Shown: positions 1 to 6,762 of the stretch, one piece after another
How positions within the stretch are numbered: the stretch's first letter is position 1
Layout: each line of letters begins with the position of its first letter
Sequence record: NC_031928.1
Source of the DNA: Escherichia phage WG01
Strand: one strand, 5' to 3'
Length of the DNA: 64,000 nucleotides
Position numbers and translations under genes: made by a program
Notes under the pieces: model-generated
Seen by the model: the letters and a program-made list of their open reading frames with translations, nothing else
Databases searched by the model: none
What the model was told of the DNA's origin: nothing

Positions 1-135
1 ATCTTCGAGACGAACTTCACCGTCATAATCGTCGAGCTCAACACCAAAACTTTGAGCAGAAGCCATATCTTTTACTTTCTTATACAGTGCAGCCAGTTCA
101 AGTGCAGCTTTTTCTAATTCATTAATATCAGACAT
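1..135 (-). CDS. partial small acidic protein; N-terminal 45 aa only, gene continues past the window start
   Basis: Minus-strand ATG at 133-135 with RBS-like GGTGAT upstream; open to the window edge; N-terminal helix (ELEKAALELAALYKK) resembles the three neighbouring paralogs. Confidence 0.35.
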   Translation of the reverse strand, partial: MSDINELEKAALELAALYKKVKDMASAQSFGVELDDYDGEVRLED

Positions 136-146
136 TTTTTATCACC

Positions 147-359
147 TTAGCAAGACATAGAGGATGTAAACCAGAAACCTTCACCTTCCGGAATACCGTA
201 GTCATCACGGACCCATTCGTAATCATCATATTCCGGGTTCTTTGGAGAAATGTATTCTCCACGACCAGAAACACGGAACTCTTCACCCGTTTCGTCAGCC
301 ACAGACTGGCCTTTACGTACTAATTCACGGATTTGGTTTTCAATTTCATCAATAGTCAT
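147..359 (-). CDS. small acidic protein, member of a local paralog family ending in W-x-S-S-x-x-Cys
   Basis: 70-aa ORF; C-terminus GFWFTSSMSC matches the C-termini of the ORFs at 369..650 and 660..950. Confidence 0.5.
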   Translation of the reverse strand: MTIDEIENQIRELVRKGQSVADETGEEFRVSGRGEYISPKNPEYDDYEWVRDDYGIPEGEGFWFTSSMSC

Positions 360-368
360 TTTATTTCC

Positions 369-650
369 TTAACATTCAGAAGAAGAGGACACCCAACCAC
401 CATTTTCTAGGCTGGTAGTGTAATCATGTTGGTTTACAATAGCGTACTGAGCTTCACCGTATTCTTCCCAGTGGGCAAGGTCGGCTTTCAAGGCGCCAGG
501 AGAATAATAGTCACCGCCCATACCGCGAGCAGGGTATATATTAAAATGAGTCTCATATTTGTTTGCAATTTCCTCGGCACGACGAATAGCTTTATGGATA
601 TCATTTACTGCTTCAGCCAATTCTTTATTTTTATGGTAATCATTCATCAT
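369..650 (-). CDS. small acidic protein, W-x-S-S-x-x-Cys C-terminal family
   Basis: 93-aa ORF; C-terminus GGWVSSSSEC; shares the AEEIANKY / G-x-YYSP core with neighbours. Confidence 0.5.
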   Translation of the reverse strand: MMNDYHKNKELAEAVNDIHKAIRRAEEIANKYETHFNIYPARGMGGDYYSPGALKADLAHWEEYGEAQYAIVNQHDYTTSLENGGWVSSSSEC

Positions 651-659
651 AAAATTTCC

Positions 660-950
660 TTAGCACATTGCCGAAGAGGAGATCCAAGCACCAACTGTAA
701 CGACGCCATTTTCAACTTCACCACCGTTGTTTTCAATTTCATCTTTAAACCATTGGGAGCATTCATAACCGACAGGATAATATGTACGGCCTGAACCATA
801 ATCACCAGTACCGAATTGGATACCATACTTATCGGCAATAGCTTCACATTCATGTTCGATGGTATTCACTTTATTCAGAAGAGCATAGATAGCCTTTTCT
901 GCAGATTTCTCGTCATTGTGTTCCGGGATTTCAATTTCAATTTTATTCAT
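660..950 (-). CDS. small acidic protein, W-x-S-S-x-x-Cys C-terminal family
   Basis: 96-aa ORF; C-terminus GAWISSSAMC; paralogous to 147..359 and 369..650. Confidence 0.5.
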   Translation of the reverse strand: MNKIEIEIPEHNDEKSAEKAIYALLNKVNTIEHECEAIADKYGIQFGTGDYGSGRTYYPVGYECSQWFKDEIENNGGEVENGVVTVGAWISSSAMC

Positions 951-1300
951 GATTTACATTCCTTAATAAAGGTTTCAAGGTCATTACGTTTAGTTTGTTT
1001 TACATACTCATTATAATTAGCCATAGCTAAAGCATATCTCTTTTTACGTGGCTTGTTTATTTTATTAGTTTGGGCAATATCAAAGACCCATGGGATAAAA
1101 AATCCTATTAAAGCCGGAACCCAAATCCACGCGAGGCTCATATCTTCAAACGGATGGCGAGGCATACCATTAATAATCCCACCGACAAGAAATCCAATTA
1201 TCCCTGCAGTCATACTAGTAGCAATGCCGAGGAATAATGAAATAGAGATATCGTAATCTGCTAATGCGTAACCAGGGTCGGTTTTACTAGGCTTATGCAT
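947..1300 (-). CDS. small membrane protein (two predicted transmembrane helices)
   Basis: ORF track 947..1348; start moved to internal ATG at 1300, which has an AAGAGG RBS; hydrophobic stretches LFLGIATSMTAGIIGFLVGGII and LAWIWVPALIGFFIPWVF. Confidence 0.5.
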   Translation of the reverse strand: MHKPSKTDPGYALADYDISISLFLGIATSMTAGIIGFLVGGIINGMPRHPFEDMSLAWIWVPALIGFFIPWVFDIAQTNKINKPRKKRYALAMANYNEYVKQTKRNDLETFIKECKS

Positions 1301-1829
1301 TTTGAACCTCTTTAGCGTATTCGCGACATTCAGCAATAAAACGATCAAGCTTACGGTGTTGTTTACGACTTTCTAATGTGTACTCATTAGCCAAAATAAT
1401 AAGCTCATCTTTATCGTAATTTTTAATATCAGAGTAAGATGGGCGACGGTCAACCATTCCAAATACATCACCATTTTCTAAAGCTACATAGCATACTAAA
1501 TGGTAATCATCGTCTGCCATATTAAGAAGCACACAATCAGCGCTCTCGTTTAAAGAATATACTGAATAACGTAGTCCAGCGAATTCCACTCGTTGAATAG
1601 CCAGATTTACGTCAATAATTTCCAAAGCATCTTCAAAAGAAAGGTCTTCAGCTAAAGCAAAAATAAAAGGTAATTTGGTAGTATCGCCACGGCTAGATGT
1701 TCTGCTTAAGAAATCGTTTGAATAGCCTAGGTCTTGGCGAATTCTATAAAGAACTGAATTGGTTTCATGGGAAAGACCACTATTTTTAAACCAATCAATA
1801 TTTGATATCAGGTCGTCATATAAACTCAT
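1293..1829 (-). CDS. hypothetical protein
   Basis: 178-aa ORF with GGAGGAGAGGAG RBS upstream; no recognisable motif. Confidence 0.5.
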   Translation of the reverse strand: MSLYDDLISNIDWFKNSGLSHETNSVLYRIRQDLGYSNDFLSRTSSRGDTTKLPFIFALAEDLSFEDALEIIDVNLAIQRVEFAGLRYSVYSLNESADCVLLNMADDDYHLVCYVALENGDVFGMVDRRPSYSDIKNYDKDELIILANEYTLESRKQHRKLDRFIAECREYAKEVQNA

Positions 1830-1852
1830 AATATTCTCCTCTCCTCCAAATA

Positions 1853-1870
1853 GGGAGACCGAAGTCTCCC
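1853..1870 (-). other. stable hairpin GGGAGAC-UUCG-GUCUCCC between two minus-strand genes
   Basis: Perfect 7-bp stem with tetraloop; no clean U-run follows; same hairpin recurs as the gene 23 terminator. Confidence 0.4.
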
Positions 1871-1877
1871 GGTAACA

Positions 1878-2471
1878 TTACTTAAGTGAATTAATGTAGT
1901 CTTCGATATCAGCAGAAGTCGTATCCATTCCAACTTGCGGGCCTTTAAACGTTTCTACGCGCATCAGGGTGTCTTCGATATCAATCTTGGTCAGTGCAGC
2001 AATTTCAACAACATCGTCGGCAGTAGCAATACCAAGGGCAGCCATATTACGAGTTTCACGGATGTACTCGAGCTTAACAGCCAGTTCCTGACGAGAGTCA
2101 TCAAGTTCCTTAACCTTCAGTTTAATTTCATTACGCATTTCGATATAATCATCGGCTTTCTTACGAAGCTGGGTAGCTGTACGACGATAAAGGAGGCCAA
2201 GTTTAGCATGTACCTGGACATCAGCGCCTTCGGCAATCAGTTTACGAATTTCACGTTCTTTAGAAGCAGCGAGCTGGTCTTTTTCATTAGCCAATGCACG
2301 AATACGTTTTTCTTCATTCACAGACTTAACATGAGCAGTCTGGAGTTCAGTGATTTTATCAATCAGAGTAGAAGCAGCTTTGGTGTATTGGTCTTCGATT
2401 GACAGGTTCTGAGCCATTGCGGTGCCCAGTTTAGAACGAATGAATTCAACGATTTTCTTTAAAGTGTTCAT
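1878..2471 (-). CDS. coiled-coil protein, possibly PspA/IM30-like
   Basis: ORF track 1878..2546; start moved to ATG at 2471 (MNTLKK...) with AAGGAAA RBS; long heptad-rich helical segments; PspA resemblance is by eye only. Confidence 0.45.
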
Positions 2472-2547
2472 AGTATTTCCTTCAGTTGGTTGATATTTTG
2501 TAATCCATGAGGACATTATACCCTGTCCTCTGAGGTTTGTAAACATT

Positions 2548-2946
2548 TTATTTCATTTTTGCGAGGCAGATTTCATTGGCTTCCCATTGAGCTTGCTTAA
2601 TAATAGCTTTGGATACAGGAGCCCTTTGGCCATAAGTTTTTGACGTTGAGAGAACAATACATTTGTTTGCTTCATTATGCCAGCCCCATGATTTTTCGCC
2701 ATGAGTACCTTTAACTACAGCTGACACCTCAACAGAGCAACCACCATCAGAAATCTTGGTTTCGACAACCCATTCATTTCTCTCAGCAGCTTCAATTTCT
2801 AATCTAGTTTTTTCTTCATACATCGCGGCCCAATCAGTTTTTGCCAAGTTGAAAGTAAGAGCTTTCTCTAATTCTTTGGCATATTTTTGTTGTTCAGGTG
2901 TTAATGAATTATACAACTCTTGCATTTCTTTATCTTCGATATTCAT
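2548..2946 (-). CDS. hypothetical protein
   Basis: 132-aa ORF with GAGGAGAA RBS; tightly packed with neighbours. Confidence 0.5.
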
Positions 2947-3004
2947 TATGTTCTCCTCAAATTATGGGCTCATAATATCTTAATCATGAGCCCATGTAAA
3001 CGTT

Positions 3005-3389: not shown

Positions 3390-3965
3390 TCAGTTCTTGT
3401 AGAACCGGAATGGGTTTATGTGGAAGGCTAACATAGCCTTAGGGATTTTACGAGACAAAAGACTCTTAAGTTTCCAACCACAGTATACACGAAGGTAAAA
3501 GGTAATCCCACCTACTTTAAGATACGGAACTGAAGCAAAGACTCCCCATGCTTCGTCATTCCACATCCATAACCATCCATGATGAGCTTTATCAGGAGAA
3601 CCGGATTCAACGTCAGGATTACCACGATAATGGAATTCTGAGCTACAATCGCGTCCAAGTTTATGGTAAGCAAAGTTATAAGCTTTATTTCGCCATAGCC
3701 AAGCTACCCTCTGGAGATAAACACCGCCCGGCATTTTCCTGATTTTAGCCCAACGTTTAATATGACCTTTGTCACCGTCAATTGGATTATCGTATGTCAT
3801 CATCCAATCAAAGCCATAAGGCAATTTACCGGTCTTTTTATTATGGAAAGGAACTACAAAAGGCGCAAGGATAACGGCCAGAACCATAGAGATGAAATCC
3901 AGTGGAACCAACAGAACCCAACTCAAATATTTTAAAAGTTTCATATATTTCTCTAAGTTAACCAA
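3390..3965 (-). CDS. Trp-rich protein with N-terminal membrane anchor
   Basis: 191-aa ORF; N-terminal hydrophobic segment LSWVLLVPLDFISMVLAVILAPFVVPF; terminator hairpin downstream. Confidence 0.5.
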   Translation of the reverse strand: MVNLEKYMKLLKYLSWVLLVPLDFISMVLAVILAPFVVPFHNKKTGKLPYGFDWMMTYDNPIDGDKGHIKRWAKIRKMPGGVYLQRVAWLWRNKAYNFAYHKLGRDCSSEFHYRGNPDVESGSPDKAHHGWLWMWNDEAWGVFASVPYLKVGGITFYLRVYCGWKLKSLLSRKIPKAMLAFHINPFRFYKN

Positions 3966-3983
3966 AAAAGCCCCAGACGGGGC
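3964..3983 (-). terminator. intrinsic terminator
   Basis: Hairpin GCCCCGTCTGGGGC followed by TTTTTT on minus strand; downstream of ORF 3989..4453. Confidence 0.55.
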
Positions 3984-3988
3984 TTTCG

Positions 3989-4453
3989 TTATTTGATTTG
4001 TTTAGCAGACCAGATACGGTCTTTGATGATTTTCTGAATATCTTCAACATACTCTAAGTCGTGAGCATGTGGATTATCTTTGAAGCTATGTGCTCGTGCC
4101 AGTTTCTGGCCTTCTGTTTTGATTACTAAAAGCTCTTTAAGAATTGCTTCATACTTAGAAATAATTCCTTTGGCGATATTTTTTTCTTGAGCGGCTTTAG
4201 GGTCCGCTTTTGACGCAGGTGCTTTACCTGTAGCTTTCTGGAACAATTCACCTGATGCAGCTAGGCTTTTAAAAACTCGGCTAACAGTATTGGCATTAGT
4301 AAAACCTTCGGCTTTAAAATCTTTAATAAAACGGAAACGTTCTTCATCAGAGGCGTCTTTGTAAGAATATTTACCTGCTTGAATTGCTGCAATCGCAGCG
4401 GCTTTTACATCTGAACTAGATTGTTCAGTCAAAAATTCATTGTAAGTTTTCAT
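3989..4453 (-). CDS. internal head protein-like (capsid-targeting-sequence-bearing) protein
   Basis: N-terminus [10 protein letters not shown] matches the T4 internal-protein leader MKTYQEFIAE with an L-x-E cleavage site; late promoter and terminator flank it. Confidence 0.6.
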   Translation of the reverse strand: MKTYNEFLTEQSSSDVKAAAIAAIQAGKYSYKDASDEERFRFIKDFKAEGFTNANTVSRVFKSLAASGELFQKATGKAPASKADPKAAQEKNIAKGIISKYEAILKELLVIKTEGQKLARAHSFKDNPHAHDLEYVEDIQKIIKDRIWSAKQIK

Positions 4454-4479
4454 ATTATTTCCTAAGTTAGTTTACTACA

Positions 4480-4487
4480 TATTTATA
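4480..4487 (-). promoter_or_regulatory. late promoter for the internal-protein-like gene 3989..4453
   Basis: Reverse complement of TATAAATA 27 nt upstream of the minus-strand ATG at 4453. Confidence 0.55.
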
Positions 4488-4488
4488 C

Positions 4489-4516
4489 AAAAAAAGCCCA
4501 ACCTTTCGGAAGGGCC
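4489..4516 (-). terminator. intrinsic terminator (second copy of the repeated hairpin)
   Basis: gcccaacctttcggaagggc followed by a 7-nt U-run on minus strand; between the RNA cluster and the late promoter at 4480. Confidence 0.55.
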
Positions 4517-4564
4517 TTTAACCTAGGGTAACCTTGTCGGGGTTCCACCTGCTAGGCAAGTGTT

Positions 4565-4898: not shown

Positions 4899-4973
4899 TG
4901 GTATCCCGCCCTGGGATCGAACCAGGACCGCAAACTTAGAAGGATCGTATGCTATCCATTACACCAGCGGGAC
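4899..4973 (-). tRNA. tRNA-Arg (anticodon TCT)
   Basis: 75-nt cloverleaf on minus strand: 7-bp acceptor stem GTCCCGC/GCGGGAT, T-arm CCTGG-TTCGATC-CCAGG, anticodon loop CT-TCT-AA, encoded CCA. Confidence 0.8.
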
Positions 4974-4978
4974 GTAGT

Positions 4979-5055
4979 TGGTGACCCAGACCAGATTTGA
5001 ACTGGTAACCTTTCCCTTATGAGGGGACTGCTGCTAACCATTGAGCTACAGGGCC
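4979..5055 (-). tRNA. tRNA with anticodon CAT (Met, or Ile if lysidine-modified)
   Basis: Minus strand: acceptor GGCCCTG with 6 of 7 pairs, T-arm ACCAG-TTCAAAT-CTGGT, anticodon loop CT-CAT-AA, encoded CCA; D-arm irregular. Confidence 0.65.
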
Positions 5056-5060
5056 TTAAA

Positions 5061-5333
5061 TCAAACTACAAATCCAGCAGGAGCATTATCATCTTTAGCC
5101 ATGTGCTGAATTGTATGATAAGTCATTTCTTCAGGAGCAACCAGATAAGCCGCAGCGTTAACTAGTGGAATTATTTTTGGTTTAGCGAATGTGCTATCGG
5201 CAATTGCCATAAAGGGCTCGCCGTCGGTCTCAACTTCACCAAATTGACATTCATACGAAATAGAACAACGTTTGGTAGTGGTTGTCTTGGTTGCCGGGTC
5301 ATAAAAAGCTAATTTTAATACTAACATAAACAC
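5061..5333 (-). CDS. hypothetical protein
   Basis: 90-aa ORF directly upstream of the tRNAs on the same strand; GAGGT RBS. Confidence 0.4.
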   Translation of the reverse strand: MFMLVLKLAFYDPATKTTTTKRCSISYECQFGEVETDGEPFMAIADSTFAKPKIIPLVNAAAYLVAPEEMTYHTIQHMAKDDNAPAGFVV

Positions 5334-6199: not shown

Positions 6200-6384
6200 T
6201 ATTCACCTTTAGAGATTTTATCCATAACGATAGCGATTAAGCCGATTAGAAATGCTACTACCAATGAGATAGAATTTTCTGTTGTTGTCAGTAGTCCACA
6301 AATGAATCCTACAAACATCGAAAAGCTAAAAGCCATTGAAGCAATTACTACAGCAACATTACGAATCAGTTCAGCGCGTTTCAT
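6199..6384 (-). CDS. small membrane protein
   Basis: 61-aa ORF with two hydrophobic helices; GAGGAG RBS; early-type promoter upstream. Confidence 0.45.
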   Translation of the reverse strand: MKRAELIRNVAVVIASMAFSFSMFVGFICGLLTTTENSISLVVAFLIGLIAIVMDKISKGE

Positions 6385-6412
6385 TTTATTCTCCTCAGTA
6401 GTTGATAGGGTA

Positions 6413-6442
6413 ATAGTATCACTACCCTATCTAAAAGTAAAC
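6413..6442 (-). promoter_or_regulatory. early-type promoter cassette
   Basis: GTTTAC, 18 nt, TACTAT on minus strand upstream of ORF 6199..6384. Confidence 0.45.
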
Positions 6443-6453
6443 GGTTTTATAAA

Positions 6454-6762
6454 CTATTTTATTCCGCGTGATGCAATCGTATTCTGCCGTTTAACGCCAG
6501 TTTGTTTAAAGTTATGATTGTCGAGTTGATCGGTACGAGCAACTCCGAATGATGATTTAATCTTAGCTTTAGATCCTTTAGTTATAGAAATAAACATCTC
6601 GGGAGCCCCTTTCTTAAAGTCCGAAGCAATTACTTCAACACCGTTCTTAGCAAGTGACCTCAGAATTGCTTCCACATACTCATCATCAAGACCTGCTTGA
6701 GTATGAATAACGAATGTCTTTGGTGCAGCCGCTTCATTGATAAATTCTTGGTATGATTTCAT
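6454..6762 (-). CDS. internal head protein-like (CTS-bearing) protein
   Basis: N-terminus MKSYQEFINEA matches the T4 internal-protein leader; 102 aa. Confidence 0.6.
   Translation of the reverse strand: MKSYQEFINEAAAPKTFVIHTQAGLDDEYVEAILRSLAKNGVEVIASDFKKGAPEMFISITKGSKAKIKSSFGVARTDQLDNHNFKQTGVKRQNTIASRGIK

Follow-up and report, generated by a model that had tools for sequence, protein, structure and literature searches.

The stretch of DNA analysed here, referred to as the window, comprises 64,000 nucleotides (nt) of Escherichia phage WG01 (sequence record NC_031928.1), a T4-like phage of the genus Dhakavirus, and carries at its left end a tandem array of four genes for small acidic proteins with C-terminal tails ending in cysteine. 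In the phages that were compared, genes of this family are usually paired with a single gene for a predicted nucleotidyltransferase, pointing to an undescribed two-part phage system. All four genes lie on the minus strand. The gene transcribed first (96-type; 660..950) encodes a protein of 96 amino acids (aa) ending in GAWISSSAMC and is annotated as a coding sequence (CDS) in phages vB_EcoM-E33 and Bp7. It is followed by the genes for proteins of 93 aa (93-type; 369..650; G-M-G-G-x-Y-Y core and C-terminus GGWVSSSSEC) and 70 aa (70-type; 147..359; C-terminus GFWFTSSMSC), both with orthologs in related phages. Positions 1..135 hold the first 45 codons of a fourth paralog (74-type), the gene of which continues past the left edge of the window. 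Positions 1-3000 of the window are 99.9% identical to Escherichia phage vB_EcoM-E33 and 93–97% identical to phages MX01, QL01, and Bp7. In E33, the fourth gene is complete and encodes 74 aa with the C-terminus GKIWYPSSC and an internal WLNSSC (positions 4911-5135 of the E33 region, named L001; a position in L001 minus 5000 gives the position in the window). An earlier note on this DNA, made from the sequence alone, had described three complete open reading frames (ORFs) of 70, 93, and 96 aa with these C-termini and a probable fourth one cut off at the edge, and all of them were found. Related phage records annotate the small ORFs as coding sequences, and the orthologs in these phages differ mostly at the third codon position, while the proteins evolve fairly fast. 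All four small ORFs are genuine genes from the early region of this T4-like Dhakavirus; the array sits in a variable early region with lysozyme e, nudE, and e.2 on one side and an e.6 homolog on the other. Further ORFs of 66–122 aa at 426-794 (plus strand), 647-853 (minus), and 816-1016 (plus) overlap the real genes in a different frame or on the opposite strand. No homologs support them in this analysis, and they should be regarded as spurious.

All four proteins matched phrog_899, a family of unknown function, over the C-terminal ~90 profile positions, with E values of 2.8e-23 (96 aa), 2.4e-20 (93 aa), 6.2e-14 (70 aa), and 1.4e-9 (translated part of the fourth protein). Judged by these profile matches, they are paralogs of one family. 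They are acidic, as the earlier note had it, with isoelectric points (pI) of 4.2–5.0 and net charges of −7 to −10, and the median pI of the family is 4.45. The family had not been recognised in that note, and nothing beyond phrog_899 was obtained here: scans of the small proteins with Pfam, NCBIfam, and PADLOC gave no relative, a PDB sequence search with the family profile gave none either, no curated library matched, and a Foldseek comparison of a small protein with viral models returned only uncharacterised members of the same family. When 1.84 billion cluster representatives were searched exhaustively with the profile, 308 proteins were found at E ≤ 1e-3, nearly all matches reaching the last residue; the 96 aa paralog alone has relatives in 391 records. 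The AlphaFold model of the 96 aa protein (predicted local distance difference test, pLDDT, 91) consists of a long N-terminal helix and a small beta sheet. The family is phage-specific; its members are small, acidic alpha/beta proteins and have the motif W-x(1-2)-S-[ST]-x(0-2)-C at the very C-terminus as their defining feature. The second family member of Mosigvirus ST0 (NC_041990.1) is split across the overlapping frames 6295-6531 and 6387-6575 of its locus (L005 6295-6575), through a frameshift that has made it a pseudogene or through a sequencing error; the ST0 record has no CDS annotated over 6295-6587.

The tail codons were read from the minus strand and encode W-I-S-S-S-A-M-C in the 96 aa protein (663..686), W-V-S-S-S-S-E-C in the 93 aa protein (372..395) and, read codon by codon, W-F-T-S-S-M-S-C in the 70 aa protein (150..173). 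The register in the three complete proteins is W-x-x-S-S-x-x-C, with one residue more between W and the serine pair than in the W-x-S-S-x-x-C given by the earlier note, and the fourth copy reads W-x-x-S-S-C, without the x-x spacer. Among 362 distinct homologs, comprising family proteins and members from the fetched loci described below, the terminal motif was present in 330; the protein stops exactly at the Cys in 322 of these and has one extra residue in 8. The spacing was W-x2-S-[ST]-x2-C in 296 homologs, W-x2-SS-C in 22, and W-x-SS-x-C in 10. In an earlier set of 183 family proteins, Cys was the last residue in 174 and was followed by one residue in 7. In the family alignment, conservation is 100% in the columns of W, the first S, and C; the column of the second S contains 97% S and 3% T, and the preceding position is S, P, or A. 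The terminal Cys, which the earlier note called invariant, is thus conserved outside this genome, none of the frames proved to be non-coding, and the description of a tandem acidic family with a Cys tail holds by the ORFs, the phrog_899 matches, the codon bias, and the homologs.

Three further elements are conserved: A-D-x-x-G-x-x-F, which closes the long helix, the motif Y-G-M-G-G-x-Y-Y-P, and a W or Y in the centre. The second of these corresponds to the G-x-Y-Y-(S)P core noted before. In half of the members the Cys is the only one, and no His or second Cys is invariant or nearly so in the alignment; a metal site within one monomer, one of the roles suggested for the tail, is therefore unlikely. 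In some members, the motif occurs 1–3 more times inside the protein. Of 25 such internal copies, not all of them independent, 23 have Asp or Glu among the three residues after the Cys (typically as C-Y-G-E-E), versus 45% expected from composition. This suggests that a negative charge directly behind the Cys matters, provided by the terminal carboxylate or by an acidic side chain. Readings of the tail as a ubiquitin-like sulfur carrier (ThiS/MoaD) or as a CaaX lipidation signal were rejected, because it ends in Cys with variable residues before it and not in Gly-Gly or with Cys at position −4. Also, PDZ-ligand and degron readings had neither supporting genes nor matching motif positions.

For the genomic context, 32 viral contigs with family members were fetched via an alignment of the Y-G-M-G-G subgroup, and all neighbouring ORFs were clustered. 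Starting from the small proteins, one protein of 280–410 aa, encoded in single copy just downstream on the same strand, was found in 34 of 36 loci, while the next commonest neighbour family besides the small proteins themselves occurred in only 9. In the reverse test, which started from the larger protein in 80 loci, small members were detected by the family profile within 5 kb in 71 loci, and motif-bearing ORFs in 4 more. Pooling both searches, the larger gene, which encodes the putative enzyme characterised below, and the small genes occur together in 111 of 125 loci with 1–6 small genes per locus; all 239 small genes are on the enzyme strand and 232 lie upstream; the gap has a median of 690 nt. 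When the enzymes are clustered, the link is retained in 41 of 51 clusters at 70% identity and in 19 of 23 at 55%. Pairing was found in Tevenvirinae (Dhakavirus, Mosigvirus, and relatives), Aeromonas Straboviridae, Acinetobacter Twarogvirinae, Stephanstirmvirinae, and Pseudomonas Otagovirus, also in contigs of 300–390 kb and in Stenotrophomonas Menderavirus, where the small genes are downstream. The genes around the module otherwise differ between these phage lineages. Paralog types recur across genera, each keeping the tail; the type with W-x-x-S-S-C plus an internal copy, for instance, occurs in Dhakavirus, Karamvirus-like phages, Serratia phages, and a Klebsiella Stephanstirmvirinae phage. 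Bases 1-80,000 of T4 contain neither family. In bacterial genomes, the enzyme was found only in 5 contigs of metagenome-assembled genomes among the genomes of 185,579 species, and the module is phage-specific. Altogether, a functional coupling of the small proteins to the nucleotidyltransferase appears highly probable.

In the E33 region, the enzyme gene is located on the minus strand at L001 3068-4027 (OL780484.1 30164-31123), ~880 nt downstream of the last paralog and ~1 kb left of the window. Three small unrelated ORFs of 75, 109, and 79 aa (phrog_7065, phrog_9796, and phrog_3723) lie between enzyme and array, and the 79 aa ORF is also found immediately upstream of the enzyme in Mosigvirus ST0. 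The E33 enzyme matches the Pfam families DUF7277 and DUF7275 as well as phrog_2141, a family with proteins of ~300 aa. Its structure model is confident (pLDDT 93) and has a DNA polymerase beta (Pol-beta) nucleotidyltransferase fold, with MenT1, MenT3, and MenT4 as best structural matches and ANT(2'') as a further one. The hallmarks of the Pol-beta superfamily, i.e., hG[GS], [DE]h[DE]h, a third acidic residue on a neighbouring strand, and an alpha-beta sandwich, were all found in the enzyme, and among 44 diverse enzyme sequences I-G-S (4-6), D24-x-D26, E68, and K124-x-S-H-R are invariant or nearly so. As the signature is intact, the DUF7277+DUF7275 enzyme is probably active. The invariant K124-x-S-H127-R128 could represent motif III of the DUF1814/AbiEii/MenT toxins (K...R, for base stacking), and the candidate position for the DUF1814-specific motif IV (a conserved Asp), residue 142, is D in 24, H in 14, T in 3, and S in 2 sequences (n = 44).

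Matches of the 44 sequences were confined to DUF7275 and DUF7277; PF08843 (DUF1814/AbiEii) and PF10127 (RlaP) were not matched at E ≤ 1, and a PDB profile search with the enzyme found no MenT sequence. Neither the N-terminal D-x-D region nor small-protein neighbours are found with the shorter proteins of Streptomyces and Gordonia phages that consist of DUF7275 only, or with a divergent protein of Vibrio nt-1. Conservation in the enzyme is highest at residues 269-280 (P0184 numbering), K-V-C-T-S-I-T-S-G-W-F-R, in which C, S/T, S, and W appear in reverse order to the tail; this may be numerology. C271 is present in all partnered enzymes examined and replaced by Ile in three partner-less truncated versions. 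The idea that the tail Cys touches a Cys of the enzyme, or shares a metal site with it, was set aside: C242 is changed to Tyr in lineages that are still partnered, and C271 is lost only in the truncated partner-less versions of actinophages and Vibrio nt-1, which are too few cases and confounded by phylogeny.

We favour, tentatively and with somewhat less than even confidence in the whole, a client model in which the tail is recognised by the nucleotidyltransferase and the small proteins are its clients. The small genes probably form the upstream, multi-copy half of a conserved two-component module, the other half being one Pol-beta-type nucleotidyltransferase of ~300 aa of the MenT/AbiEii/ANT kind. 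The invariant tail would dock in the acceptor site of this enzyme, with the Trp as anchor and the terminal carboxylate, or the acidic residues behind the Cys in internal copies, as charge determinant. A nucleotidyl or phosphoryl group from a nucleoside triphosphate would then move to the hydroxyl of the invariant Ser or, less likely, to the Cys thiol. The diverged bodies of the 1–6 paralogs would belong to 'clients' of a common modifying enzyme, and their targets, of host or phage origin, would differ. The parts of this proposal are not equally firm. That the tail is a recognition element of the nucleotidyltransferase is probable by a narrow balance, and a covalent modification of its Ser or Cys is a rather doubtful proposition. 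A new phage protein-tagging chemistry, in which the MenT-like enzyme nucleotidylylates the invariant Ser (or the terminal Cys) of a short C-terminal tag common to a family of small effector proteins, or primes an oligonucleotide on it, and thereby arms or switches several clients during infection, seems unlikely.

The client model is preferred because diverged paralogs each keep the tail, because the motif can be repeated within one protein, and because one conserved enzyme is present for all of them. The second Ser, exchanged almost exclusively for Thr in the core alignment, was counted as further support. Fold relatives of the enzyme transfer groups to hydroxyls of transfer RNA (tRNA), antibiotics, and proteins. 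Protein examples are MenT1 and MenT3, each of which phosphorylates a Thr or Ser of its own (PMC11375011), and MntA, which adenylylates the adjacent partner HepT (PMC7641770). The idea of the earlier note that the tail could be a processing or conjugation site receives indirect support from the linkage to an enzyme with a nucleotidyltransferase fold that could act on it, and its interpretation of the tail family overall is partly supported.

Several points weigh against the client model. The second Ser is Ala in some distant members, and the necessity of a terminal Cys is left unexplained. In the model of the 96 aa protein, the tail lies within the confident fold (strand 88-91, helical turn 92-95; mean pLDDT of the last six residues 79), and its W and S-S could have a structural role. 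Known MenT-like enzymes act on tRNA and not on proteins, and their small upstream partners are inhibitors. Finally, the complete enzyme occurs in a few lineages with no detectable small protein (L068, L107/108/110, and L124), and therefore some partner-independent activity of the enzyme is indicated; a tblastn search for a remnant of the array in these enzyme-only phages found none.

The main rival explanation is an antitoxin-like regulator, which we consider possible but not likely. Here, the MenT-like enzyme would act on tRNA 3′ ends, for host translation shut-off or tRNA repair, and the acidic small proteins would bind to its positively charged groove, with the tail as a pseudo-substrate plug that restrains or tunes the enzyme as MenA1 does with MenT1. 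The closest structures are indeed those of the tRNA nucleotidyltransferase toxins MenT1, MenT3, and MenT4, the catalytic G-S, D-x-D, and E of which are kept in the phage enzyme. MenA1, a mainly helical protein of 68 aa, blocks the active site of the tRNA-modifying MenT1 (PMC10435456), and the phage proteins are likewise small and acidic (family median pI as given above) with a long N-terminal helix. The gene order is also shared: as in MenA1-MenT1, other MenAT pairs, and AbiE, a small, largely helical protein is encoded directly upstream of a Pol-beta-fold nucleotidyltransferase on the same strand (MenA-MenT and AbiEi-AbiEii order; PMC10435456). The module lies near the phage tRNA cluster in Tevenvirinae, and in the enzyme-only locus L068 (IMG/VR contig 650627040, T4-like; enzyme at 3612-4564) seven tRNA genes take the place of the array ~430 nt upstream, a suggestive location given that the structures nearest to the enzyme modify tRNA; outside Tevenvirinae, however, there are no tRNA genes near the module. 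One inhibitor would be enough for one toxin, yet 2–6 diverged paralogs, of distinct types kept across genera, are the rule, and internal motif repeats would be of little use to a single plug. It is also unexpected for a toxin in need of neutralisation that some phages have the enzyme with all invariant residues and no partner. Unlike MenT, the phage enzyme has no DUF1814/PF08843 sequence match, and neither the candidate position of the DUF1814-specific motif IV nor the MenT auto-phosphorylation position is conserved in it. Unlike MenA and AbiEi, its partner comes in 1–6 diverged tandem copies with an invariant Cys-terminated tail that is not known from any MenA or AbiEi, and the phage module is confined to lytic phages instead of being found on bacterial chromosomes.

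It is improbable that the small proteins function independently of the enzyme, for example as acidic nucleic-acid mimics or host-factor inhibitors, with the Cys as an inter-subunit metal ligand, a redox-active or reactive thiol, or as a mimic of a thiol-plus-carboxylate ligand of a host metalloenzyme, and that the linkage reflects mere co-regulation or a shared pathway. The long helix could oligomerise and bring several terminal Cys residues together, and each family is sometimes alone, as the small protein in locus L004 and the enzyme in L068. Same-strand adjacency in 111 of 125 loci from unrelated lineages with no other shared neighbours is, however, hard to explain without a direct functional dependence, and the single Cys in half of the members and the lack of a conserved second Cys or His in the alignment also count against this explanation. 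Quite improbable, too, is a function as specificity adaptors, in which the tail would dock each paralog on the enzyme and the variable body would recruit a different substrate (host protein, RNA, or small molecule), with the small proteins staying unmodified. This would agree with an invariant tail on diverged bodies, with several paralog types per genome beside a single enzyme, and with orthologous types being kept across genera, but no third partner is evident, docking does not need internal motif repeats, and 60–100 aa are very small for two interfaces. An artefact, i.e., non-coding frames or a chance or low-complexity likeness of the C-termini, might be suspected from short ORFs in an AT-rich genome with overlapping spurious plus-strand ORFs, but is effectively refuted by hundreds of homologs with significant profile scores, the third-codon-position bias among orthologs, the confident structure prediction, and the conserved gene order with the enzyme.

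Returning to the client model, other known systems were compared with the module. In HepT-MntA (HEPN/MNT, type VII toxin-antitoxin), a minimal Pol-beta enzyme adenylylates its adjacent small partner, which is a precedent for a partner as substrate (PMC7641770). MntA acts on a Tyr of a HEPN RNase, whereas the conserved candidate acceptors here are Ser and Cys of a C-terminal tail, and the phage enzyme is larger and contains the helical DUF7275 domain. Membership in the HEPN/MNT group was rejected, as the small partner has no HEPN hit. Another group of Pol-beta-fold enzymes, represented by GlnD acting on PII and GlnE acting on glutamine synthetase, reversibly nucleotidylylates a protein hydroxyl, the acceptors being Tyr; no homology was detected. 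Precursor arrays of ribosomally synthesised and post-translationally modified peptides (RiPPs) are similar in that several diverged small genes in tandem share one short invariant motif and stand next to a single conserved enzyme. In epidermin-type lanthipeptides, a Ser...Cys pair forms aminovinyl-cysteine (AviCys), and the S-(S)-x-x-C at the free C-terminus of the phage proteins resembles it. Unlike such leader-core peptides, the phage products are predicted to be folded cytoplasmic proteins of 60–100 aa (pLDDT 91), and the enzyme next to them is a nucleotidyltransferase. A lanthipeptide or AviCys pathway was rejected, because DUF7275 and DUF7277 were the only significant Pfam hits among the ten neighbouring genes scanned, which included no dehydratase, cyclase, LanD-type decarboxylase, protease, or exporter. 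RlaP (PF10127) is a phage-borne family of RNA-ligase-associated Pol-beta nucleotidyltransferases from an RNA-repair neighbourhood (PMC7824862, PMC12776372). Genes for polynucleotide kinase-like proteins were found in the flanks of 19 of the 125 loci, which is a likeness to that neighbourhood. RlaP is, however, not described with Cys-tailed small partners, and membership of the enzyme in the family was rejected, its profile giving no match in the search of 44 sequences mentioned above.

Database records label both families as 'hypothetical' or with mutually inconsistent names unlike the predicted enzyme fold. Identical or near-identical proteins carry different depositor names, which suggests automatic mis-annotation: 'tail completion protein' for the 93 aa protein, 'DNA helicase' for the 70 aa protein, and for the enzyme either 'baseplate hub subunit' or 'prohead assembly scaffold protein'. 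By tblastn, the enzyme is present in 732 phage records, and a few of their depositors name it 'nucleotidyltransferase'. A search of the literature found no paper on phrog_899, on DUF7275 or DUF7277, on the protein accessions, or on a phage MenT-like enzyme with such partners. The module can be described as a nucleotidyltransferase with a small cognate partner, with a fair chance of a new protein modification behind it. At least 732 phage genomes carry the enzyme, among them common E. coli, Klebsiella, Acinetobacter, Aeromonas, and Pseudomonas phages of therapy collections. A near-invariant tail of eight residues on very diverged proteins next to one enzyme offers a precise and cheap experimental handle. 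Candidate outcomes are a new type of protein modification, MenT-like toxin-antitoxin logic in a phage version, or a new way of retargeting a nucleotidyltransferase, any of which would add a mechanism to phage takeover or counter-defence.

Some other genes near the module were also recorded. In the window, tRNA genes for Arg(TCT) and Met(CAT) are located at 4899-5055 on the minus strand, ~4 kb upstream of the array in the direction of transcription; ARAGORN and Rfam detected no further RNA gene in the 64 kb. In 22 of the 125 loci, the module has a gene for a PPP-type Ser/Thr phosphatase (metallophosphoesterase) no more than a few kb away, e.g., at L007 2035-2772, L014 12750-13463, and L013 11971-12747, the lineages including Stephanstirmvirinae-like phages and the contigs of 300–390 kb. 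This phosphatase could remove a phospho- or nucleotidyl-Ser mark, or its presence could be a coincidence. A second family of small acidic proteins (77–90 aa, 'MSIAIYIKSESCDSY...') accompanies the module in 34 of the 125 loci, and its member in E33 is encoded at L001 1253-1486, beyond the window. In T4-like phages, the gene of this second family lies ~1.6 kb downstream of the enzyme, and in the contigs of 300–390 kb directly upstream of the array.

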